From IMG/VR virus record IMGVR_UViG_2778261225_000004: DNA of 20,622 nucleotides; one strand, 5' to 3'. The translations under genes were made by a program, and so were the position numbers. The notes beneath the pieces are model-generated. The model did not search any database and was not told the DNA's origin. It saw only the letters and a list, made by a program, of their open reading frames with translations. Position 1 is the stretch's first letter, and every line of letters begins with the position of its first letter. Positions 7,657 to 18,627 of the stretch are shown here, one piece after another. The stretch is from a virus (taxonomy: Duplodnaviria; Heunggongvirae; Uroviricota; Caudoviricetes).

Positions 7657-8493
7657 TCAGAAGTCAGCCAGCTGGTCGGAGGCTGCGCCCGTTGCGGTGA
7701 ACCGGTTCTGCGGATCGCCGTCCTGCGTGCGCAGTTTTTCCTTCAGTGCTGCCAGCTCTGTGGTCAGTAAAGTGATTTTCTGGCTGTCCTGCTGATGGCG
7801 GGTTTCCAGCACATTAAAACGGTCGATAATGTCGGCCTGTGACGTTGCGACACCTTCCACCGCTTCCTGAATACGGGAGAAACTGGCGTCATCCGCTTTG
7901 CGGCCACGGCCAATAATCCCCATAACGCGGTTAAACCACTGGGTGCCTTCTTCCTGACGTTGTTCGGTGAGTTCGATAAGTTCTGACTCCATAGCGGCGG
8001 TAAACATCGCCACGTCTCCCTGCTGACAGTTGAATGTCATCAGTTGCATACGTTGTTGTGCCGCAAAGGCCAGACGTTCCGTGCCCAGGCTGGCAGGGGT
8101 GTCGGTCATTGCCAGCCCGCGCAGGTAAGGGCCTCCCGTGATGGTTGACTGTGGTTCCAGCTCAATACTGGAGTAAATTTTTTTACCATCGTTAAGCAGG
8201 GACATCATGCGAGCGGTCGGCTCAATTTCGGCATACAGTGCCGTGCGACCTGCCAGCGGGCCATCGGTTATGTCTTCGGTGCTCAACCCCACAACATCGC
8301 CCATAGCGGAAAACTCGCTACCGGGGAGTGGTGACAGGATGTGCTCAATATTCACACGTGCACCATAAACGGACGGGTTATAACTGGTGGCGGCAGCTTT
8401 CAGCATGTCGCCGTTGATTTCGCGCCCGTCTGCCGTTACACCGGAGACAGCCACGCGAAACTTTTTGCGGGATGTCTTTTTTTCATTAGCCAT
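7657..8493 (-). CDS. O: Capsid scaffolding protein gpO
   Basis: Track ORF 7657..8526; start moved to the ATG at 8493 (MANEKKTSRKKFRVAVSGV, compare P2 gpO MAKKVSKFFRIGVEG) with a GAGGGG Shine-Dalgarno. Contains VYG.R.N.EH and LAMTDTPASLGTE motifs. Confidence 0.9.
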   Translation of the reverse strand: MANEKKTSRKKFRVAVSGVTADGREINGDMLKAAATSYNPSVYGARVNIEHILSPLPGSEFSAMGDVVGLSTEDITDGPLAGRTALYAEIEPTARMMSLLNDGKKIYSSIELEPQSTITGGPYLRGLAMTDTPASLGTERLAFAAQQRMQLMTFNCQQGDVAMFTAAMESELIELTEQRQEEGTQWFNRVMGIIGRGRKADDASFSRIQEAVEGVATSQADIIDRFNVLETRHQQDSQKITLLTTELAALKEKLRTQDGDPQNRFTATGAASDQLADF

Positions 8494-8647
8494 AGTTTTT
8501 GCCCCTCTGACTGGTTCTTCAGTCATGATGGCAAAGCGTAACAGGCTGATACAAAGGTCTTTTGTTGTAAGAAAACGGCCAGAACAGGGGGTTAAGGAGA
8601 ACAGTTTCGCGCGCGGGTAATCTTCCTGTAATTACTCAGGGGGAGCA
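8494..8647. promoter_or_regulatory. Divergent late-promoter region between O (minus) and P (plus)
   Basis: 154-bp non-coding gap between divergently oriented morphogenesis operons, as in P2 where Ogr-dependent late promoters sit here. Contains a partial dyad TGT..ACA near TTGTTGTAAGAAAACGGCCAGAACA; no exact TGT-N12-ACA element was confirmed. Confidence 0.4.
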
Positions 8648-10399
8648 ATGATTCAGGACGCTTTTGTGCGCCAGCGTGCGCGGCAACTTTACTGGCAGGG
8701 TTATCCGCCCGCAGAAATATCACGTCTGATGGGAATAAACCCGAACACGATTTATGCGTGGAAAAAACGCGACCAGTGGGATGAAACGCCACCCGTGCAG
8801 CGTGTCACGCAGTCCATCGATGCGCGCCTCATCCAGCTCACTGAAAAACAGAATAAAACAGGTGGTGACTTCAAGGAAATAGACCTGCTGACCCGGCAGC
8901 TTAAAAAACTGCATGATGGCCAGCCGGATGCGACGGCCACAGGAAAGAAAGGCCGGGCGAAAAAACTCAAAAATCATTTCACGCCGGAACAGATTGCCGC
9001 ACTGCGGGAAAAAATCATCAGCAGGCTGGAGTGGCATCAGCGGGGCTGGTTTGACTCCCTGACCCTTTGCAGGGAAGCCGGGATACGTAACAGGATGATC
9101 CTGAAATCCCGACAGATTGGGGCGACCTGGTATTTTGCACAGGAAGCACTGCTGATGGCGCTGCGTGACGATGTGGCGCAACCTTACCAGCGTAACCAGA
9201 TTTTTTTGTCTGCGTCGCGTCGTCAGGCGTTCCAGTTTAAAAGCATTATTCAGAAGGCCGCGGCTGAAGTTGATGTGGAGCTGAAAGGGGGCGATAAAAT
9301 CATCCTCTCCAACGGCGCAGAGCTGCATTTTCTCGGCACTTCTGCTGCGTCGGCACAGTCCTATACGGGCAATTTTTATTTTGATGAATTTTTCTGGGTC
9401 AGTCGCTTTGCCGAACTGCGCAAGGTGGCTGGCGCTATGGCAACCCTCAGCGGACTGCGGCGCACCTACTTCTCCACGCCATCCACCGAAACGCACGAGG
9501 CATACGCCTACTGGAACGGCGACCGCTGGAACGAGAAAAAGGCCACGCATAAACGCCAGCGTTTTTCTGTGGACTGGAAAACGCTGCATAACGGGCTTAT
9601 CTGCCCTGACCGGACGTGGCGGCAAATTGTCACGCTGGAAGATGTGGTTAAACACGGCTGGAAACACACCGATATCGACGAAATTCGTGATGAAAACACC
9701 GAAGACGAGTTCCTCAATCTCTATATGTGTGAGTTTGTCCGCGAAGGGGAATCGGCATTTAACCTGAATATCCTGATTGGCTGCGGTGTTGACGGATACG
9801 ACGACTGGAAAGACTGGAAACCTTTTGCTCCCCGCCCGATGGGGAATCGTCCGGTATGGATTGGGTATGACGCAAACGGCAGCAGTGGCAACGGCGACAG
9901 CGGCGCTGTGTCCGTGGTGGTTCCTCCGGCTGTTCCTGGTGGCCGTTTTCGAACGGTGGAGACGCGACGCGTTCAGGGGCTGGAGTTTGAAGAACAGGCC
10001 AGAGTCATTGAAGAGTTCACGTGTCGCTACAACGTGGAACACATCGGCATTGATGTGACGGGCGGGAACGGGGAGGCTGTTTATCAGATAGTGAAGCGGT
10101 TTTTCCCTGCTGCTATTCCGTACACCTTCACGCTGTCATCCAAACGGTCGCTGGTACTGAAAATGCTGCAAATAATGCGTGCCGGACGGTGGGAATACGA
10201 TCGCGCCGAACGCGAGCTGGTCGCGGCCTTTAACGCCGTGCGTAAGGTGAAAACACCGGGCGGCTTTATCACTTACGAAACGGACCGCGCGAGGGGGATC
10301 AGCCACGGCGACCTTGCGTGGGCAACCATGCTTGCTGTCATTAACGAACCAATTGGCGGCGAAGGAGAAAACGAGCGTTTCACGGTTATGGAGTTCTGA
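8648..10399 (+). CDS. P: Terminase large (ATPase) subunit gpP
   Basis: 583-aa ORF with LYWQGY, KSRQIGATWYFAQEAL, NQIFLSAS, ELKGG, YFDEFFWV and GYDANG motifs collinear with remembered P2 gpP; GGGGGAG Shine-Dalgarno; stop overlaps the Q start (ATGA). Confidence 0.95.
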   Translation: MIQDAFVRQRARQLYWQGYPPAEISRLMGINPNTIYAWKKRDQWDETPPVQRVTQSIDARLIQLTEKQNKTGGDFKEIDLLTRQLKKLHDGQPDATATGKKGRAKKLKNHFTPEQIAALREKIISRLEWHQRGWFDSLTLCREAGIRNRMILKSRQIGATWYFAQEALLMALRDDVAQPYQRNQIFLSASRRQAFQFKSIIQKAAAEVDVELKGGDKIILSNGAELHFLGTSAASAQSYTGNFYFDEFFWVSRFAELRKVAGAMATLSGLRRTYFSTPSTETHEAYAYWNGDRWNEKKATHKRQRFSVDWKTLHNGLICPDRTWRQIVTLEDVVKHGWKHTDIDEIRDENTEDEFLNLYMCEFVREGESAFNLNILIGCGVDGYDDWKDWKPFAPRPMGNRPVWIGYDANGSSGNGDSGAVSVVVPPAVPGGRFRTVETRRVQGLEFEEQARVIEEFTCRYNVEHIGIDVTGGNGEAVYQIVKRFFPAAIPYTFTLSSKRSLVLKMLQIMRAGRWEYDRAERELVAAFNAVRKVKTPGGFITYETDRARGISHGDLAWATMLAVINEPIGGEGENERFTVMEF

Positions 10400-12884: not shown

Positions 12885-12918
12885 CATCAGGGCGAGTTCG
12901 CCCTGATGTTGTGTTATT
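12885..12918 (+). terminator. Intrinsic terminator (10-bp perfect stem CATCAGGGCG/CGCCCTGATG, loop AGTT, then TTGTGTTATT)
   Basis: Read from the sequence 39 nt after the stop of the 198-aa gene; the U-tract overlaps the stop of convergent parR. Confidence 0.6.
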
Positions 12919-13225
12919 CAGGAAATAACGCCCGGATATTTCCTGCCATCTGACTGGTTATCTGTGCGGTTGGTACTGGCTGTGACATGGGGCGTTCGGT
13001 CCTGGTTTGCGTCACTGATAACGCCTCATCGTCAGCCCATGCAGCCAGTCGGTAAGCCTCTGCCGGATTCATTTTCAGAAGTGCCAGCCCGGCCAGAAAA
13101 GCCACGCGTTGGCCGCTTTTGCGGGCTTCTGGTGTAAGGCTGTCCAGCCAGGCGCATGCATCGCCTTCGTTCTTGACGGCGGCGGGCTTCAGATAGAAAC
13201 TTATCCGTCTGGTTGGTGTCGTCAT
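12914..13225 (-). CDS. parR: ParR-like centromere-binding protein (type II partition adaptor)
   Basis: Internal ATG of track ORF 12914..13360, 5 nt downstream of the parM stop. The N-terminus RRISFYLKP..AWLDSLTPEARKSGQRVAFLAGLALL and the C-terminal IRALFPE resemble remembered plasmid R1 ParR (RTIAFKLNP..LTAGLALY..LRSLFPKE). Confidence 0.7.
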   Translation of the reverse strand: MTTPTRRISFYLKPAAVKNEGDACAWLDSLTPEARKSGQRVAFLAGLALLKMNPAEAYRLAAWADDEALSVTQTRTERPMSQPVPTAQITSQMAGNIRALFPE

Positions 13226-13229
13226 TGGT

Positions 13230-14189
13230 TTACTCCTTGTCCATTGCGTACAGCCCATTAACCAGAGCAAACTGTGGCACCCCGTCCGTGATGAAAGTCG
13301 CATTAACTCCGCAGGCTTCGCGGATAGCGGGTGCCACAATCTCCGCCCCGCCACCGACAACCATCACCCGCCCGTAACCCGAAAAAACCGCCAGCGCGCG
13401 GATCACGCGTTGTTTCAGTGTTTCTTCCTTTTCACGAATAACCGCCATCAGGCTGGCGTAATGCGCGTCATTGTGGATGTGCTGGCGCAGCCAGGCTTCA
13501 TCATGGCGATGTTCGATAATGGTATTGGCGATGTGGTGACTGGTACGCATACCGTTAGTGGCCATCACCGACAGTACGGCATCGGCCATCAGGGAAACGC
13601 CTACGTGTGGATCGCAAAACATCTGGCTGATACCTGCCAGTTGCCCCTGAACCTTTGCCACATCCAGCGTGGTTCCGCCCAAATCCACAATCAGCAGGGA
13701 TTCAAACGGACTCATGTCAGCCAGTGCCTTAAAGCCAGCCGGAATGGATTCAGGCATAACCCGTACGTTACGGATAGTGAATGCTTCGCCGTTCTGGTAC
13801 TCCACCGGGCGCATGACGTTCGCTTTTTTGCGGTTGATGTTGGCCATGTCCGGCTGTGCGTTTGTGTCGAAATATTCGCTCAGTGGCAGGGTGACAACCA
13901 CATCCACTTCCTGTGGTGTGATGCCTGATTTGACCAGCGCGTGGTGAATGGCGATTACATTCACATCGCTGTACTGGTATTGCGTGTCGGTCGTCTGGAC
14001 AAAGCGATCGCTGACCGGATCAAAACCATAGCGCACGCCATCAAGCATGTAGTTCGCGGGCTGCGTGCCACCGAACGGCGCAGACCATTCCGACTTGAAG
14101 CTGTTCGGGCTGATGGCGTTGCGGCGTTCGCCGTTCTCAGTCCATGCCAGCTTGATGTTGGTGGAGCCGTCGTCGATACAAATTTTCAT
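13230..14189 (-). CDS. parM: ParM/StbA-like actin-like segregation ATPase
   Basis: 319-aa ORF with actin-fold motifs collinear with remembered R1 ParM: CIDDGSTNIKLAW, YSDVNVIAIHHAL, VMPESIPAG, LLIVDLGGTTLDV, GVSL, VMVVGGGAE and a C-terminal LVNGLY. Confidence 0.85.
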   Translation of the reverse strand: MKICIDDGSTNIKLAWTENGERRNAISPNSFKSEWSAPFGGTQPANYMLDGVRYGFDPVSDRFVQTTDTQYQYSDVNVIAIHHALVKSGITPQEVDVVVTLPLSEYFDTNAQPDMANINRKKANVMRPVEYQNGEAFTIRNVRVMPESIPAGFKALADMSPFESLLIVDLGGTTLDVAKVQGQLAGISQMFCDPHVGVSLMADAVLSVMATNGMRTSHHIANTIIEHRHDEAWLRQHIHNDAHYASLMAVIREKEETLKQRVIRALAVFSGYGRVMVVGGGAEIVAPAIREACGVNATFITDGVPQFALVNGLYAMDKE

Positions 14190-14265: not shown

Positions 14266-17088
14266 TCATATATCGCGGCGTGTTTTTTGCTCATTTACGG
14301 GATTTGTGAGTCCCGTTTCTGTCTGTTTTTTGTTTCCACTGGTCAGGCTACCCCGCAGCAGGTCTGCTTTGCGGTGGGCGCGTTCAGTGGTTTCACTGAT
14401 TCTCTGTGCGTGCTCTGCGTCACGGATGGCGCGCAGCATGTCAGAAAGCACGGTAACGGGGGTTTTCATGGTGTTCTGGTCCTGCTGAAGTGTGGATGCC
14501 AGACGTGCGGCGGCTTCGGGGTCTGATGCCCCCAGTTGTTCCAGATAGCTGGCGACCGGGTTATGGCGGATCTCTGTGCTGCTTACGCCGTGATTACGGC
14601 TCAGGCGCTGCCAGAGCTGCGTGATTCGGCTGTCCGGGCGGGTATCCGGTTTGCGTACAATTTCAAATCCCTGCGGTGCAATGATGCTGCCGTCAACGTA
14701 CAGGCTGCCGCCCCGTAACAGGTGCTGCATCTGCTGTTCACCGATATGCAGGCCGAGAGATTCGGCAGATTCCCGCCATTCTTTAGCGAGTAATTCGTGG
14801 TTATCAGGCAAAGGCCGCTGCTGTTTGCGGCTCTGTGTCCAGCTCTGCATTTCATCACTGCTGTTTTTTGCCTGTTTGTCACGAAGCGAACGCATCAGCG
14901 CCCGGCGTTCGTGCCGTTTCAGTGAGCGCATCCATTCGTTCACTTCAACGCCATCAGGGAGCTGCGGCCACGGTGCTGGCCGTTCTTCCGGCTGTTCTGT
15001 CCCGTTGTTGTTCGTTTCCTGTACACGGGGACAGTTATTGCCACGAGTCCAAGGGGCGGCAGGGCCGCCCTGAAGGTCAAAACCATTTTCGCGGGCGCTG
15101 TCTTCCGCTTCCGGTTTGCGTCTTACCAGCTTCCAGTTATCCGGATGCGTGCACACACGGGAGGATTCCCCGATGAGTGGTGACCAGATCCCGTAAATCT
15201 GTACGCTCTGTTCGCCGTAATCGTTCAGCTCATCGGCGAGGTCGTAGGCGGTGCGAATCAGGTAGTCTTTGCGTGGAACAAGTACGCCGCCCTGTTTCTC
15301 TATGTAGGTGGCAAAACATCCTGCATCAGCGGCAGCGAGTACCGCATCCATTGCGTCATCCTTCAGCCGTTGCGGGCCTTCCGGGTTGCGTGCCATCTGG
15401 CTGGCAAGGCGGCGGAGTTCACGCCACACCTGACGGGAGGGGATGCCAAAGAACTGGAACTGGCGGACCCGGTGAAGGCGTGCCCAACCGATGGCGCGCT
15501 CCACGCTCTCGGCCATTGATTTTCCGGTTTCGTGGTCAACGCGTGGTTTGCCTGTTTTCGGGTCGATGCCATCCACGGCGCGGCTGTCCAGGTTTTTTCC
15601 GATGTAGGTGGCGATGTAGCTGGTTGGCGTGCCTTTTGAGCCGTCGACATACTCCGCCTTAAAGCGCGGAGTAATATCATCGCCCAGCTCGTGACGATCT
15701 TCCTGAATGGCAATATCGCGGGTGTGGGACACAATGGTGTCGATTTCTTCCGGATGAGCAAAGACCATCATATGCCAGTGCACGGTGCCGTCATGGTGAG
15801 GCTCCACCGTGCGGATGCCATACCAGCGAAGACCGTCGCGGTTCAGTTTCTTGCGGACCGCCGCAAAAAACGTGTTAACCAGGTAATCGCTGGAGTCGCG
15901 CATGGTGGCCCCGTTCCATTTGGGATTCGGATGACCGTTCTCTGTTGTGGCGTGGTATTTTGACGGGCAGGTGACAGTCAGAAACACCGCTTTGTCGCCA
16001 CGGGCTTCGGCCAGAAGTTCCAGCCCCTTCATGGTGGCCATCATTTCTGCCTTACGGTGAACCGGGTTACTTACTCCCGCGTAATACACCGTCTCGAGAT
16101 CAATCGTGAACCCGTCTTCATTTTCCAGCATGAAACTTTTCAGGAAATCGCGTGTTTTCTCGCGCTGTGCGCGAAACTCGCTTAACGCGTCCTGGCTCAG
16201 ATAGGGTGATGTTTTTCTGGAAACCAGACAGGCGGCGCGGAGTTGTTCTTCTCTCCACTCGCAACGTAACAGCCACAGTTTGCGTTTCCACCATTCTGCA
16301 CAGGTCAGGCGAAGGATTGCGCCCGGCAGCAGCTCCGTGTCCGGTTCGTTCCTCCGGTCTTTGTCTGTTGTAAGTGCGTCATAATGTGGAGGCATGGCGT
16401 GCAGGTGTAACGCCATGCGGGCCAGCATCTGATACGCCTTCAGCGTTACATCCATGGTCAGTTCGCCATCGGTCGCGCCAAAGCCATCGCAGAGTTTTTC
16501 GAAGGTGCTGCTGAACATCGCCGCCGTCATGGTGGCCAGTGTCTGTATCTGGTGTTTGTTGAGCTGCGGCAGGTAAAGCAAATCGTCCAGGCGTTCGCGT
16601 CCGGCAAGGGAGCGATAACCCTGTGTCAGCCAGCGGTGATCGGTGCGCTCCAGACGTTCGAATATTTTGCGCAGGTTTCCGCGCGCGTAGCGTTCAGCCT
16701 GCCAGTTCTTTTTGCCTTTCTGACGATCGGCTTCCTGTTTTTTGCGCAGGAAGGAGAGGTGGCGAATAAGCGGATCGCGCAGATAGGACGGCAGCAGGCG
16801 CAGCGAGGCCATGGCTTCATCCACCGCGCCGCGTGCCTGTTTTCTGGCATCTCCTGCCAGTGTGATGGTTTTGTCCTGTTTTTCCTGTGCGTCCAGGCTT
16901 TTATTAATCAGGTTGCCCAGCGGCGTTGCGGAGAACGCCGCATCAGCCATTTCCTGGCGGCGCTCGTTCTCTACCCGGTAGGCATCCAGCCAGGAGGAAA
17001 GCGCGGATTCAGGAGCGGGGATCCCCGTTCCTTCACGCCCCACTGCGTGGCGCGGTTGTTGCCAGTCCCTGATGTACTCTGCCGTCAT
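14266..17088 (-). CDS. A: Replication initiation protein gpA (rolling-circle replication endonuclease) with an extended C-terminus
   Basis: 940-aa ORF at the P2 gene A position (downstream of the early operon, next to the cos-proximal cargo region). The size and a VHWHMMVF-type motif fit the P2 gpA family; about 180 aa longer than remembered P2 gpA (761 aa). Confidence 0.88.
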   Translation of the reverse strand: MTAEYIRDWQQPRHAVGREGTGIPAPESALSSWLDAYRVENERRQEMADAAFSATPLGNLINKSLDAQEKQDKTITLAGDARKQARGAVDEAMASLRLLPSYLRDPLIRHLSFLRKKQEADRQKGKKNWQAERYARGNLRKIFERLERTDHRWLTQGYRSLAGRERLDDLLYLPQLNKHQIQTLATMTAAMFSSTFEKLCDGFGATDGELTMDVTLKAYQMLARMALHLHAMPPHYDALTTDKDRRNEPDTELLPGAILRLTCAEWWKRKLWLLRCEWREEQLRAACLVSRKTSPYLSQDALSEFRAQREKTRDFLKSFMLENEDGFTIDLETVYYAGVSNPVHRKAEMMATMKGLELLAEARGDKAVFLTVTCPSKYHATTENGHPNPKWNGATMRDSSDYLVNTFFAAVRKKLNRDGLRWYGIRTVEPHHDGTVHWHMMVFAHPEEIDTIVSHTRDIAIQEDRHELGDDITPRFKAEYVDGSKGTPTSYIATYIGKNLDSRAVDGIDPKTGKPRVDHETGKSMAESVERAIGWARLHRVRQFQFFGIPSRQVWRELRRLASQMARNPEGPQRLKDDAMDAVLAAADAGCFATYIEKQGGVLVPRKDYLIRTAYDLADELNDYGEQSVQIYGIWSPLIGESSRVCTHPDNWKLVRRKPEAEDSARENGFDLQGGPAAPWTRGNNCPRVQETNNNGTEQPEERPAPWPQLPDGVEVNEWMRSLKRHERRALMRSLRDKQAKNSSDEMQSWTQSRKQQRPLPDNHELLAKEWRESAESLGLHIGEQQMQHLLRGGSLYVDGSIIAPQGFEIVRKPDTRPDSRITQLWQRLSRNHGVSSTEIRHNPVASYLEQLGASDPEAAARLASTLQQDQNTMKTPVTVLSDMLRAIRDAEHAQRISETTERAHRKADLLRGSLTSGNKKQTETGLTNPVNEQKTRRDI
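14299..14338. repeat. Repeat module B (hairpin CGGGA-TTTGTGAG-TCCCG followed by TTTCTGTCTGTTTTTTG) inside the 3' end of gene A
   Basis: Read from the sequence; a direct-repeat partner of module A. Homopolymer lengths in this stretch are uncertain. Confidence 0.3.
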
Positions 17089-17094
17089 AGTGAT

Positions 17095-17460
17095 TTACTT
17101 CGTCATGCCATTCAGGGTGTCGCGGCAGACTGTAGCCAGCCGCTGAATTTCCAGCACGGTGTCTTCTGTGTCGGCATGGCGATGTGTGATGCGGATGCTG
17201 TCGGCAATCACATCGACGATTGCAGAGGATGGGTGCTGGTAAATGCCAATAACGGACGGGGTGCCACCTTCAATGCGGTAAAGCCTGTAATTTCCCTCGT
17301 GGCTGTCAATCATGTAGCGACCATCAATAACAATCTTTCCGTCAGCGAGCTGCGGTACAGGCAGGGATTTCAGGTACATGTCATAACGATCACGCACGCG
17401 AGCGGCAAGATCACGTTCTGTGTTGAGCAGGTATTCAAGAAAGTCGTTGGCGAGAATCAT
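17095..17460 (-). CDS. Hypothetical early-operon protein (121 aa) immediately upstream of A
   Basis: ATG with an AGAGGA Shine-Dalgarno; stop lies 6 nt before the A start; protein-like composition. No family recognised. Confidence 0.55.
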   Translation of the reverse strand: MILANDFLEYLLNTERDLAARVRDRYDMYLKSLPVPQLADGKIVIDGRYMIDSHEGNYRLYRIEGGTPSVIGIYQHPSSAIVDVIADSIRITHRHADTEDTVLEIQRLATVCRDTLNGMTK

Positions 17461-17532
17461 TGCGGCAATCCTCTTGTTACAGATGTGCGAAGGCCTCCCG
17501 CCGCAAGGTGCAGGAAAGGCCCGGAACAGGAA

Positions 17533-17763
17533 TTAATGGAGTTTGTTTTGCTGCTGGATGAGCTGTTGAAGCTCGTGCAGATCATCCGCCAGATAGCTGA
17601 AAACAGAGGCGGAATAAATGTTTGATAGTGCGTGGCTGCGCTCATGCAGCATATTGATGTGCATGATTTGCGCGACGCGTGATGCGCGGGAAAGTCTGCG
17701 GTTGATTTCAGTCTGGATGTGACGACGCTCCGCGATAGCGCGGTGTGGTTTGCGGTTTGCCAT
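17533..17763 (-). CDS. Hypothetical small basic protein (76 aa)
   Basis: ATG start with an AAGGGG Shine-Dalgarno-like element; same strand as the early operon. No family recognised. Confidence 0.45.
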   Translation of the reverse strand: MANRKPHRAIAERRHIQTEINRRLSRASRVAQIMHINMLHERSHALSNIYSASVFSYLADDLHELQQLIQQQNKLH

Positions 17764-18085
17764 GGTGTGGCCCCTTGTGTAGTAAGTTGTGAAAACTCAC
17801 CATCCAGAGCTGCGAAACTGTGGGTGGCGAGACGTACGAGGTTCGCAGTACCGGCTACACAAGAACCCGGCCCGACCGAAGTCGGCCCCGTACGCCCCGC
17901 CATAATTCTGACGCGAAAAAAACGTGGCAATACAGTACGCACAAAAAAACCGCTGGCGCGGTTGTGCGCTTGTGTAGTCAGCAGGCTGCGAAACCCGGCA
18001 CCCGTTTTGTGAGGTGCAGCGGAAATGTAACCTGACTGATTGCGGCATGGCAAGCGGTTTTTTTGTGTGTGCATGTTCTGGTTTC
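17764..18085 (-). other. 322-bp non-coding block inside the early operon with repeated CTTGTGTAG and CTGCGAA(A)C modules (two direct, one inverted) and stable hairpins; candidate structured RNA or protein-binding/ori-like element
   Basis: No credible ORF on either strand (track ORFs here are Arg/Pro-rich or low-complexity). Motif CTTGTGTAG at about 17774 and 17969 with its reverse complement at about 17855; CTGCGAAAC at about 17810 and 17986 with GTTCGCAG at 17841; GC-rich hairpin with a C-UUCG-G loop on the minus-strand transcript at about 17866..17890; CCGCTGGCGCGG preceded by A7 at about 17943..17962. Confidence 0.3.
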
Positions 18086-18385
18086 TTAGTGGTTCAGAAA
18101 AAAATCAAAAACCTTGTCAATGCGTTGCAGCAGCTCTTGCTGTATTGCTTCCGGCGTTTCCGGTTCGCCTGGCGCCTCCAACGTCGCGCAGAAATCCTCG
18201 ATTTCATGACGGAGCGTCAGGCGAATGGCGAGAGGTGTGGTTCTGGCGTGCTCCAGCTCATCCAGCAGCGCCAGCACTGCAGACGGCGAGAGCATTGCGC
18301 GAAACGCCAGTAATTTTTGAGGCGTTGCCATTCGTTGCAGGTCAGTCGCCAGTTCGCGTAATTCCTGGTGGTTGATGGCGCTCAT
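18086..18385 (-). CDS. Hypothetical acidic early-operon protein (99 aa)
   Basis: ATG overlaps the upstream stop (ATGA coupling); protein-like composition. No family recognised. Confidence 0.55.
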   Translation of the reverse strand: MSAINHQELRELATDLQRMATPQKLLAFRAMLSPSAVLALLDELEHARTTPLAIRLTLRHEIEDFCATLEAPGEPETPEAIQQELLQRIDKVFDFFLNH

Positions 18386-18627
18386 GCTCTGGCTTCCTTC
18401 AGTAGCTGGTTAAACATGTTGGTAAGTGGATTGCCGCACCCGAACGGCATCGGGTTTATCTGGTAAGAAAAGCGACCGCCTGTTTTGCGCTCTTTTCTTA
18501 TGACTGAACCGCTGCGCCAGAGTCGGCGTAACTCCGCATTAATGGCTGTGGTTGGGGTATTCAGTGCTGCGGCGATTTCTCCACCGCTACACCCCGGATT
18601 GGCGGCGATATAGTCCAGAATGGTCAT
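18382..18627 (-). CDS. Small putative winged-helix DNA-binding protein (81 aa)
   Basis: ATG overlaps the upstream stop (ATGA); the segment GGEIAAALNTPTTAINAELRRLWRSGSV looks like a helix-turn-helix. Fold assignment is inference only. Confidence 0.5.
   Translation of the reverse strand: MTILDYIAANPGCSGGEIAAALNTPTTAINAELRRLWRSGSVIRKERKTGGRFSYQINPMPFGCGNPLTNMFNQLLKEARA

Follow-up and report, generated by a model that had tools for sequence, protein, structure and literature searches.

The c4 RNA of phage P1 arises by 5' processing of a longer transcript by RNase P, and Rho-dependent polarity belongs to its mode of action. In P1 and P7, c4 blocks the translation of ant at the ribosome binding site. 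The P4 literature, as relayed by text that cites it, reports that the CI RNA of P4 prevents replication-gene expression; seqA has been equated with IsrK, and CI with C4, in published text that speaks of 'the IsrK-C4 immunity system'. For the Salmonella prophage Gifsy-1, it has been shown by experiment that IsrK exists both as a short, terminated RNA and in a read-through form, that its middle part pairs with the downstream (C4) region, and that an anti-repressor is controlled. In that system, anrP is activated more than 100-fold when IsrK is over-expressed, and IsrK also promotes induction of the prophage; emphasis has been placed on the activating role of the short IsrK and on a leader ORF translated from a conserved AUG of C4.

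Here we analyzed a 322-bp gap between two small genes in a 20.6-kb stretch of viral DNA, the whole of which is referred to below as the window. The gap is very probably the known IsrK-C4 antisense-RNA immunity cassette of the P4 (seqA-CI-seqC) and P1/P7 (a1b1-c4-a2b2) type. The prophage that carries it is P88-like and belongs to the P2 family; within its early operon, the block immediately precedes the gene for an epsilon-type anti-repressor and replication gene A. On this reading, it is an immunity switch of a kind already known from phages rather than something novel.

The interval and its two RNA matches

The window is 99.7% identical to the P88-like P2-family phage NC_049391. In PGAP-style gene calls, the gap (17764..18085) is flanked by a 99-aa gene (18086..18385, minus strand) and a 76-aa gene, just as described in the first-pass annotation, and it is the largest intergenic interval of the early operon. 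That annotation also held every other early-operon junction to be tight or overlapping, which is true of most of them (overlapping or less than 12 nt) but not of one gap of 85 nt and one of 39 nt. In NC_049391, a Cox-like gene, a divergent HTH repressor and the integrase gene adjoin the early operon; the end of the window itself falls within cox. The 322-bp block was found in 1153 of 5426 complete E. coli genomes, or about one fifth.

An Rfam scan of the minus strand, which had been suggested as a check, returned two matches that are adjacent, on the same strand, full-length and above the gathering score (GA). The first of these, to RF01394 (isrK, the family entered as IsrK Hfq-binding RNA), covers model positions 1-77 of 77 with 64.1 bits (GA 50) and defines an IsrK-like small RNA at 18017..17943, equivalent to P4 seqA and to the P1 a1/b1 leader. 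A match to c4-a1b1 (RF03163) at 18030..17978 was sub-threshold (20.9 bits against a GA of 46.7). The IsrK-like RNA contains two 5' hairpins, both of which are kept in the alignment fold of 12 loci, and ends in an intrinsic terminator recovered by a terminator scan. This terminator is the hairpin plus U7 that had been noticed in the minus sense, with its stem-loop at 17963..17948 and its U run at 17949..17943, the first two U of which close the stem. Upstream, a sequence scan found a sigma-70 promoter-like site on the same strand (TTGCCA-N18-TACATT, 18053..18024), the -10 hexamer of which ends 6 nt before the first base of the isrK match. When compared by eye, lambdoid and other isrK copies have -35/-10 pairs of other sequence in the same position, namely TTGATT-N17-TACACT, TTGACG-N17-TAAAGT, and TTGATT-N17-TATAGT. 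A short IsrK-like RNA with its own promoter-like site and Rho-independent terminator is thus predicted in silico. As is typical of the IsrK family, a C4-like RNA follows isrK directly, and the two contain complementary sequences; the spacing is 35 nt in the window, and C4 begins 21-35 nt after isrK in all 12 fetched phage loci.

The second match, to RF01695 (C4), places a C4/CI-type antisense RNA at 17907..17820 on the minus strand (83.2 bits against a GA of 45, model positions 1-87 of 87, E 2.4e-15). Its minimum free energy (MFE) structure (-47.7 kcal/mol, z -4.46) is the three-helix fold of the Rfam consensus, with compensatory changes at 11 of the 27 consensus pairs among 12 loci. The closing stem pairs 17902..17886 with 17841..17825. 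Hairpin 1, with its UUCG loop (17885..17872), is the GC-rich hairpin that had been predicted to close with C-UUCG-G on the minus-strand transcript, and hairpin 2 (17871..17850) has a 12-nt loop containing the recognition element a' (CUUGUGUAG, 17863..17855). The second recognition element, b' (CUGCGAA, 17848..17842), lies in a single-stranded junction, and the RNA ends in a 3' tail (CCACCCAC). A weak promoter-like site (TTGCCA-N17-AATTAT, 17930..17902) is found on the minus strand just before C4. We rejected it as an independent C4 promoter, as its -35 element reads TCGCCA in other P2-like copies and the lambdoid copies have no -35 partner. Several features of C4 are consistent with processing: a closing stem that begins just 3' of AAUUA, the CCACCC of the 3' tail, and the lack of a convincing conserved promoter of its own. 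Rather than from a promoter of its own, C4 more likely derives from transcripts that pass the IsrK terminator and are then processed.

Recognition elements, repeats and the reading frame across them

The composite repeat modules that had drawn attention to the block, in two direct copies and one inverted copy, are present as placed. The 9-mer CTTGTGTAG occurs three times in the window, always within the block: twice on the plus strand (17774-17782 and 17969-17977) and once on the minus strand (17855-17863). The chance expectation is 0.04, and none of 100 shuffles reached three copies. Its companion GCTGCGAAAC is found at 17809-17818 and 17985-17994, with an imperfect inverted copy at 17839-17848. 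The number of copies of the 7-mer CTGCGAA is not rare in itself (four in the window against 3.7 expected), and three of the four are inside the block. For direct repeats D1 and D3, and for several inverted repeats of 8 nt, no conservation logic emerged, and we treated them as chance.

The inverted copy corresponds to the C4 recognition elements a' and b'; these have their targets, on the same strand, in the two direct copies. One target pair lies in the IsrK-like RNA (b1, UUCGCAG, 17992..17986; a1, CUACACAAG, 17977..17969). The other is in the downstream target region (17816..17771) at the Shine-Dalgarno sequence of the next gene (b2, UUCGCAG, 17816..17810; a2, CUACACAAG, 17782..17774). There, a2 overlaps the Shine-Dalgarno sequence AAGGGG (17776..17771), which stands 7 nt before the AUG at 17763. 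Both target pairs match a' and b' perfectly, over 9 and 7 nt, respectively.

Conservation of this pairing was examined in 12 diverse phage loci and, in addition, in 67 parsed P2-like IMG/VR loci. Among the 12 diverse loci, b':b2 amounts to 7 pairs in every case, and a' forms on average 8.8 contiguous Watson-Crick pairs with its own a2 compared with 4.5 for non-own combinations; in PhiR46_1 and NAR688 the contiguous a':a2 match is just 5-6 nt. The a2 element abuts the Shine-Dalgarno sequence in 10 of the 12 loci and in P4. RNAduplex energies were lowest with the own isrK target in 12 of 12 loci and with the own a2b2 target in 8 of 12, the diagonal in the latter case being broken by 1720a-02, Stx1-type cross-pairs and others. 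The 67 P2-like loci fall into nine specificity types. Eight of these show perfect matches of 9-10 nt (a) and 7-8 nt (b) to both targets, and the ninth has one G.U pair at a1 and one G.U pair plus one mismatch at a2. Different matched triplets reside on near-identical backbones. Across the 12 + 67 loci, loops and targets change together while the backbone is constant, and at least 11 matched a'/b' combinations were seen in P2-like backbones. The covariation analysis of homologous intervals that had been called for therefore reveals recognition loops that co-vary with their targets. It appears from these comparisons that the a/b elements set immunity specificity and have been exchanged as matched triplets between otherwise near-identical phages, which would make the immunity specificity of each prophage predictable from its a'/b' sequences. 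The P88-type C4 carries the elements CUGUAGUUG/GUGGAAA and is heterologous to the C4 of the window.

Among the roles initially considered for the block, that of a structured or small RNA, with the minus-strand transcript bearing an element for termination or processing, is borne out by the two full-length Rfam matches above gathering score and by the co-variation of the repeats with their targets. The other suggestion, an ori-like element with iterons or binding sites for gpA, or a nick site, draws only on the proximity of gene A and on the presence of direct and inverted repeats. It appears extremely improbable: a', b' and the two target pairs, co-varying as RNA partners, account for every repeat and leave none over, and an identical architecture accompanies replication systems of unrelated kinds, namely the lambda-type O of Stx phages, the alpha primase of P4, and that of Gifsy-1. 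The origin of P2 is located inside gene A.

The block had also been described as non-coding. It is in fact spanned by a 205-aa ORF (18074..17457, minus strand), but this ORF does not behave as a coding sequence. It is annotated as a 'transcriptional regulator' in NC_049391 and as an 'Ash family protein' by PGAP elsewhere, and one could suppose that the block encodes this protein and that the repeats are incidental. The ORF does match Pfam Phage_ASH (PF10554) with 26.5 bits against a threshold of 26, its frame is open in five of six P2-like copies, ending in an ATGA overlap with the start of orf121, and the same frame is stop-free across isrK..C4 in 11 of 12 loci; furthermore, Gifsy-1 'orf45' is translated from the conserved C4 AUG and is AUGA-coupled to the next gene. 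We nevertheless consider a protein-coding block very unlikely. Over C4 in the 12 loci, variation shows no excess at third positions (0.245, 0.253 and 0.280 for codon positions 1, 2 and 3) and clusters in the loops used for RNA recognition (0.475 and 0.42). Frameshifting indels in strain DG343 leave the frame that opens at the C4 AUG (17903 in the window) only 65 codons long, and in PhiR46_1 the isrK..C4 frame is interrupted by a stop, yet in both loci the RNA matches and the a/b pairing are intact. The ORF also runs in a different frame across the epsilon gene, which has Pfam support, and substitutions in the overlap fall mostly at the second codon position of the ORF. The Pfam Ash domain coincides exactly with isrK, C4 and a2b2, and its founder, the P4 'cI gene product' ORF (59.7 bits), sits over the CI RNA; P4 immunity is RNA-mediated. 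Gifsy-1 orf45, likewise, is conserved in nucleotides and variable in amino acids.

Stops per frame, indels, codon-position variability and the epsilon overlap led us to reject the Ash ORF as a conserved protein; what the window contains is an HMM match at the Phage_ASH threshold and very probably not a translated, constrained family member. A conserved coding frame in homologues, which the first-pass annotation had named as evidence against its proposal, did not emerge: most copies keep the ORF open, but codon periodicity is lacking, and indels break it in some copies that retain the RNA features. Translation of the frame as a regulatory leader ORF is possible and is compatible with an antisense-RNA cassette.

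Predicted target genes and possible modes of control

The gene whose ribosome binding site is covered by a2 (17763..17533, minus strand) encodes a 76-aa protein named 'derepression protein' by PGAP. It matches Pfam PF25738 (Derepression) with 32.5 bits (GA 27) and shares 29% identity over 66 aa with P4 epsilon (pairwise BLASTP E 4e-9), the helper-derepression protein. As a member of the epsilon family, it is a putative anti-repressor. By gene order, the same transcription unit continues with orf121 (17460..17095) and with the replication endonuclease gene A (17088..14266), which encodes a Phage_GPA domain (438 bits), both on the minus strand. Polarity or premature termination would be expected to bring orf121 and A under the control of the cassette, and the regulated outputs indicated are the anti-repressor and the replication gene. 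The cassette could serve to restrain the phage's own anti-repressor, to block superinfection, or to interfere with other P2-like phages or satellites.

A transcript started at about 18017 from the promoter-like site at 18053..18024 is predicted either to terminate as a 75-nt IsrK-like RNA or to read through into C4. By analogy with P1, P4 and Gifsy-1, we propose that C4 would be excised from the read-through transcript, as by RNase P in P1, and would act in trans on a2/b2 to block ribosome binding. Lost translation, or premature termination, would then silence the anti-repressor gene and orf121-A both in a lysogen and on any superinfecting phage that shares its specificity. The a1/b1 elements of IsrK may compete for C4, in cis by sequestering a'/b' in the unprocessed transcript, and titration of C4 by the short IsrK RNA would offer a route to de-repression. 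For the window phage, we infer the promoter, the transcription start, the processing sites and the regulatory outcome.

In the predicted MFE structure of the read-through transcript (18017..17750), a1/b1 and a'/b' are paired in cis, as they are in 'structure A' of Gifsy-1. This fold could point to an activating logic, in which the read-through transcript is locked in cis by that pairing and the short IsrK opens it in trans, so that the anti-repressor gene and those downstream are translated, with C4 not acting mainly as a repressor in trans. The induction of anrP and of the prophage by Gifsy-1 IsrK would fit such a logic, as would the conserved AUG at the 5' end of C4, which opens a long frame in the window. 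In the predicted fold, however, a2 and the Shine-Dalgarno sequence are unpaired, so that the long transcript is not obviously locked, and the leader frame of the window does not end at the epsilon start, unlike orf45 at anrP. The perfect complementarity of a':a2 and b':b2, kept in nearly all types, would be unnecessary if IsrK:C4 pairing alone mattered, and the precedents of P1 and P4 are repressive. On this evidence, an activating cassette seems a possible but doubtful description of the locus. The repressive and activating logics are not mutually exclusive.

One feature that counts against the cassette and calls for an explanation is that gene A, which is essential, is separated from the early promoter by an intrinsic terminator. 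No N- or Q-type antiterminator is known to act on the early operon of P2-like phages. On the minus strand, an upstream arm, ACACACAAAAAAACCGCUUGC (18070..18050), is complementary to the IsrK terminator over its 3' half and U tract (17957..17937). This inverted repeat (I1) is 21 nt long and 90% complementary with a 15-nt perfect core, and in the MFE structure of 18075..17937 (-55 kcal/mol, z -4.7) the arm helix replaces the terminator hairpin. Of 80 P2-like copies in IMG/VR, 79 contain the core, CACAAAAAAACCGC, the remaining copy being one A shorter, and the core is also found in the four other P2-like loci checked; the copies examined from lambdoid phages, P4 and Gifsy-1 lack such a complement (9 nt or less). 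Both arm and terminator are essentially invariant across the 80 IMG/VR loci, and the few length variants of the A and T runs (one locus each with A6/T6, A7/T6 and A7/T5) do not co-vary. The arm is possibly an antiterminator for early-promoter transcripts, or else an A-tract UP element of the IsrK promoter.

The cassette of P2-like phages might have acquired a built-in, promoter-selective RNA antiterminator, an idea that we put forward only tentatively and consider rather unlikely. Early transcripts bearing the arm would read on to epsilon, orf121 and A, and arm-less transcripts from the IsrK promoter would mostly terminate short. If this were true, expression of the replication gene in a helper-type P2-like phage would be doubly gated by RNA (C4 and the antiterminator), a satellite-type epsilon anti-repressor would be under RNA control inside a helper phage, and RNA cross-immunity or interference would become possible among P2-like and lambdoid prophages and P4-like satellites with a'/b' elements in common.

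Comparison with known immunity cassettes

The value of identifying the locus lies mainly in annotation hygiene, in that a known RNA cassette is left blank or mis-annotated as protein. The potentially new elements are details of context alone: the passage of early transcripts beyond the IsrK terminator, the role of the epsilon homologue in a helper-type phage, and possible prophage-satellite cross-talk. Elsewhere, the module appears in annotations as an 'Ash family protein', as a 'transcriptional regulator', or as N-terminal extensions of anti-repressors.

Lambdoid copies of the Stx/ST64B/mEp460 type show the same isrK-C4-a2b2 arrangement in the early right operon, between a cII-like gene and the anti-repressor and replication genes, with 67-73% identity between their module DNA and the block of the window. 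They differ in having a Rha/Ant-type anti-repressor, annotated CDSs that run in frame through the RNA module (Ash and Rha domains), and no upstream terminator complement. The long in-frame extensions of these 'anti-repressor' CDSs upstream of isrK show no third-position bias (10/13/14 and 40/54/43) and were discarded as coding sequence; they are probably mis-called starts.

Gifsy-1 (IsrK - orf45/STnc1160 - AnrP) has the same order as the window, isrK, C4 and an anti-repressor gene, with 25 nt between isrK and C4 in Gifsy-1. The Gifsy-1 leader ORF, however, ends in AUGA on the anti-repressor start, whereas that of the window crosses epsilon out of frame and ends in ATGA on orf121. The output in Gifsy-1 is AnrP and then AntQ, and in the window, the epsilon homologue and then gpA. 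Gifsy-1 is lambdoid and carries the module after Q, whereas the module of the window is part of an early replication operon.

The immI region of P1 and P7, in which c4 controls icd-ant through its a1/b1 and a2/b2 targets, shares with the window RF01695 (a family named after P1 c4), two loop elements, and target pairs that flank the RNA gene on one transcript. In both, a ribosome binding site is part of the downstream target and an anti-repressor is the product concerned; as in P1 and P7, the loops of the window RNA would define heteroimmunity, and the RNA would form a second layer beside a protein repressor. The differences are that the anti-repressor of the window is of the epsilon type and not Ant1/Ant2, and that the first ORF after a2 is the anti-repressor gene itself, with no icd-like leader gene. 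In addition, the upstream target of the window gives an isrK match that includes a terminator, and its match to c4-a1b1 is weak; P1 enters this comparison through its description in the literature.

The most extensive parallels are with P4 (PLE - seqA - CI RNA - seqC - ... epsilon - orf151 - alpha). Our scan of P4 placed isrK at 8692..8615, followed by C4 at 8507..8420 (the site of the old 'cI' ORF) and then by epsilon, in the same order and on the same relative strand as in the window. The two loci share the a/b layout, the downstream target of P4 being fused to an AGGAGG Shine-Dalgarno sequence (GTGAGAA...TTCACAGGAGG-N9-ATG). In both, epsilon is downstream and is followed by a replication gene, the 76-aa protein of the window being the epsilon homologue, and the old 'cI' ORF and the 205-aa ORF belong to the same Pfam Ash 'family' and lie over the RNA. 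In P4, seqA and CI are separated by 107 nt and a 65-codon ORF lies between seqC and epsilon, compared with 35 nt and an a2 directly on the epsilon Shine-Dalgarno sequence in the window. The replication gene of the window encodes gpA, a rolling-circle endonuclease, and that of P4 the alpha primase; no homology was found between orf121 and P4 orf151. The window element is a helper-type P2-like phage, whereas P4 is a satellite without the 15-nt upstream terminator complement. Finally, the RNA is the immunity factor of P4, but it is not the sole one here: the phage family of the window also has a P2-type protein repressor/Cox switch, represented in NC_049391 by the Cox-like gene and the divergent HTH repressor, so that the RNA cassette can add no more than a second layer of immunity. 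The cassette would work in a P4-like manner, within a phage that has another immunity system besides it.

Structured RNAs in the early operon

The window is P88-like and belongs to the P2 family (Peduoviridae, Xuanwuvirus); over positions 17400–18500 it is 99.7% identical to phage NC_049391. All genes surrounding the 322-bp non-coding block are encoded on the minus strand, as are the features of the block itself, which is preceded by an Ead/Ea22-like gene (99 aa, 18385..18086) and followed by a 76-aa gene (17763..17533), the 121-aa gene orf121 (17460..17095) and the replication endonuclease gene A (17088..14266). The product of the 76-aa gene is a member of the Pfam family Derepression, founded on the epsilon protein of P4 (32.5 bits against a threshold of 27), and shares 29% identity with P4 epsilon (E 4e-9). 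The Phage_GPA domain of the 940-aa gpA spans only residues 179–503, leaving ~440 C-terminal and ~178 N-terminal residues without a Pfam assignment. Directly downstream of A (12914–14189, minus strand), close relatives have genes annotated as encoding a plasmid segregation ATPase of the ParM type (14189..13230) and a small partition/stability protein, unusual cargo for an integrase-bearing P2-like prophage.

An Rfam scan of the entire window at gathering thresholds returned exactly two matches, both full-length and both on the minus strand of the block: isrK (RF01394, 18017..17943, 64.1 bits against 50) and the C4 antisense RNA (RF01695, 17907..17820, 83.2 bits against 45). A permissive scan added a weak c4-a1b1 match that covers the 5' part of isrK. 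Folded alone, C4 adopts the consensus structure of its family (-47.7 kcal/mol, z -4.46). A promoter-like sequence, TTGCCA-N18-TACATT, ends 6 nt upstream of the first base of isrK, and the hairpin followed by U7 that was reported in the first-pass annotation is the intrinsic terminator that closes the isrK match. The GC-rich hairpin with its C-UUCG-G closure is likewise present on the minus-sense RNA. The promoter-like site, terminator, folds and complementarities described here are all in silico results.

The repeats of the block can be assigned to the same RNAs. The 20.6-kb window contains CTTGTGTAG three times, always within the block (expected 0.04; none of 100 shuffles reached three), and GCTGCGAAAC is found as two direct copies and one imperfect inverted copy, confirming the composite modules noted at first pass. 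The inverted copy corresponds to the two recognition elements of C4 taken together: a' (CUUGUGUAG), in the 12-nt loop of the second hairpin, and b' (CUGCGAA), in the single-stranded junction right after it. The two direct copies, which read UUCGCAG...CUACACAAG on the RNA, are the targets of these elements. One target pair lies within isrK (b1, 17992..17986; a1, 17977..17969) and the other downstream of C4 (b2, 17816..17810; a2, 17782..17774), with a2 extending into a Shine-Dalgarno (SD) sequence, AAGGGG, that stands 7 nt ahead of the AUG of the 76-aa gene.

Covariation of recognition elements and targets

The comparison drew on diverse phage loci, 12 in all: three from P2-like phages, seven from lambdoid or Stx-type phages (Hafnia phage yong2 being one), PhiR46_1 and Klebsiella NAR688. 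In every one, isrK is followed by C4 after 21–35 nt, and the C4 stems show compensatory changes in 11 of 27 pairs. The a' and b' elements vary from phage to phage and both target pairs vary with them. Contiguous Watson-Crick pairing between a' and a2 averages 8.8 for a phage's own elements versus 4.5 for non-own combinations, and b' and b2 form seven contiguous pairs in all 12 loci. In 10 loci a2 adjoins the SD; PhiR46_1 and NAR688 have no more than 5–6 nt of contiguous a':a2 match. Two more E. coli prophages with nearly the same backbone carry other matched triplets again. A decayed remnant in E. coli MDK9L1 (1200–1450 of the fetched locus), beside IS1 and IS110 fragments, retains an intact isrK (61.8 bits), with C4 breaking off inside hairpin 2 and pseudogenes downstream.

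With the 76-aa protein as query, 80 IMG/VR loci were found, 67 of which could be parsed into nine specificity types. Eight types have perfect matches of 9–10 nt (a) and 7–8 nt (b) to both targets. In the ninth (L089 and five similar loci), a' (CUGCGUUUG) pairs with a1 (CAAACGUAG) through one G.U, and with a2 (CACACGUAG) through one G.U and one mismatch; such a variant may be drifting or partly insensitive to immunity. The a' and b' elements reassort independently, in at least 11 combinations on P2-like backbones. Such a pattern marks an antisense recognition system selected for distinct specificities. It does not mark protein-binding iterons, which were rejected as an explanation of the repeats. 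Of the possibilities raised at first pass, structured small RNAs with a terminator are what the block encodes; the origin-like element is not upheld, as the repeats co-vary as antisense sites.

The b' element CUGCGAA (17842–17848) is common to this phage and to lambdoid Stx1/Stx2 phages whose a' differ, and the b' element UUCUCAC is common to P4 and NAR688. Partial RNA cross-talk among unrelated prophages and satellites through a common b' is conceivable from such sequence identity.

Reading frames across the block

The whole block is crossed by a 205-aa ORF (18074..17457), which NC_049391 labels 'transcriptional regulator' and other records 'ash family protein'; it barely reaches the Pfam Phage_ASH threshold. 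Codon-position variability over C4 is flat (0.245, 0.253 and 0.280), with maxima in the recognition loops, and reveals no coding signature there. The isrK..C4 frame is broken by a stop in PhiR46_1, and indels in the P2-like copy of strain DG343 shorten the frame opened by the C4 AUG to 65 codons, the RNA features being unharmed in both. Where the ORF overlaps the epsilon-like gene, most substitutions fall at its second codon position. A conserved protein from this ORF was therefore rejected.

The Ash domain exactly overlays isrK, C4 and a2b2, both in the window (17748–18029, minus strand) and in the obsolete 'cI gene product' ORF of P4 (8329–8521, 59.7 bits), within which the P4 C4 match is located. 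The RNA genes of Hafnia phage yong2 and those inside lambdoid 'anti-repressor' CDSs are overlaid by it as well. Phage_ASH (PF10554) seems to represent the isrK-C4-a2b2 RNA locus in translated form. Records are at odds over this interval, naming it 'transcriptional regulator', 'hypothetical protein' or 'similar to ash family protein', or leaving it unannotated.

The conserved AUG of C4 (17903) opens a 148-codon frame (17457–17903, minus strand) that runs across the epsilon-like gene in a different frame and, in five of six P2-like copies, ends in ATGA on the start of orf121, recalling the orf45-AUGA-anrP coupling of Gifsy-1. From its sequence, this frame may reflect regulatory translation or chance. 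In three lambdoid loci (L009, 895–2046; L007, 926–1948; L008, 934–2079), CDSs annotated as anti-repressor or 'peptidase' begin at the end of a cII-like gene and continue in frame across the IsrK promoter, isrK and C4 into a Rha domain. These CDSs show no third-position bias upstream of isrK, so their start codons are probably mis-called; the true start lies after a2 and the SD.

Predicted regulation and relation to known immunity systems

In the full read-through transcript (18017..17750), a1/b1 are predicted to pair in cis with a'/b', leaving a2 and the SD free. By analogy with P1, P4 and Gifsy-1, C4 would be processed out of read-through transcripts and bind b2/a2 in trans, covering the SD of the epsilon-like gene, so that epsilon, orf121 and A would be silenced through lost translation or premature termination; a1/b1 of IsrK would compete for C4.

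The IsrK promoter is directly preceded by a 21-nt segment (18070..18050) complementary to the 3' arm and U tract of the IsrK terminator (17937–17957), with a perfect core of 15 nt. For a transcript that begins further upstream, folding predicts this helix and not the terminator hairpin. The core, CACAAAAAAACCGC, is found in 79 of the 80 IMG/VR P2-like copies (the remaining one has one A fewer) and in the four further P2-like loci examined, also when a different gene precedes it; among the loci compared it is absent from the lambdoid, P4 and Gifsy-1 copies. On the predicted folding, the arm could act as a promoter-selective antiterminator, letting early-promoter transcripts pass toward gene A. 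No less plausibly, it may serve the IsrK promoter as an A-tract UP element; the compared copies offer no covariation of arm with terminator to choose between the two.

The element belongs to a kind already known and curated. It is also common, with a match over 80% or more of the block in 1153 out of 5426 complete E. coli genomes. Interest is largely confined to the possible antiterminator and to what an epsilon homologue would do in a phage of the helper type. Barquist et al. is cited for the relation of the cassette to known systems; published text already identifies seqA with IsrK and CI with C4, under the name 'the IsrK-C4 immunity system'. In P1 and P7, c4 prevents translation of ant at the ribosome binding site. 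In Gifsy-1, isrK is likewise followed by a C4 match, which covers the region named orf45/STnc1160, and then by the anti-repressor gene anrP; experiments there have demonstrated that the terminator is read through, that IsrK pairs with the region downstream of it and that translation of the anti-repressor is controlled. P4 has both matches in the same order (isrK 8692..8615, C4 8507..8420) and shares the a/b layout, its downstream target being fused to an AGGAGG SD; epsilon and the replication gene lie further downstream. In contrast to P4, where the CI RNA is the sole immunity factor, this phage family also possesses a P2-type repressor/Cox switch, so the cassette would form a second immunity layer, as does immI in P1.
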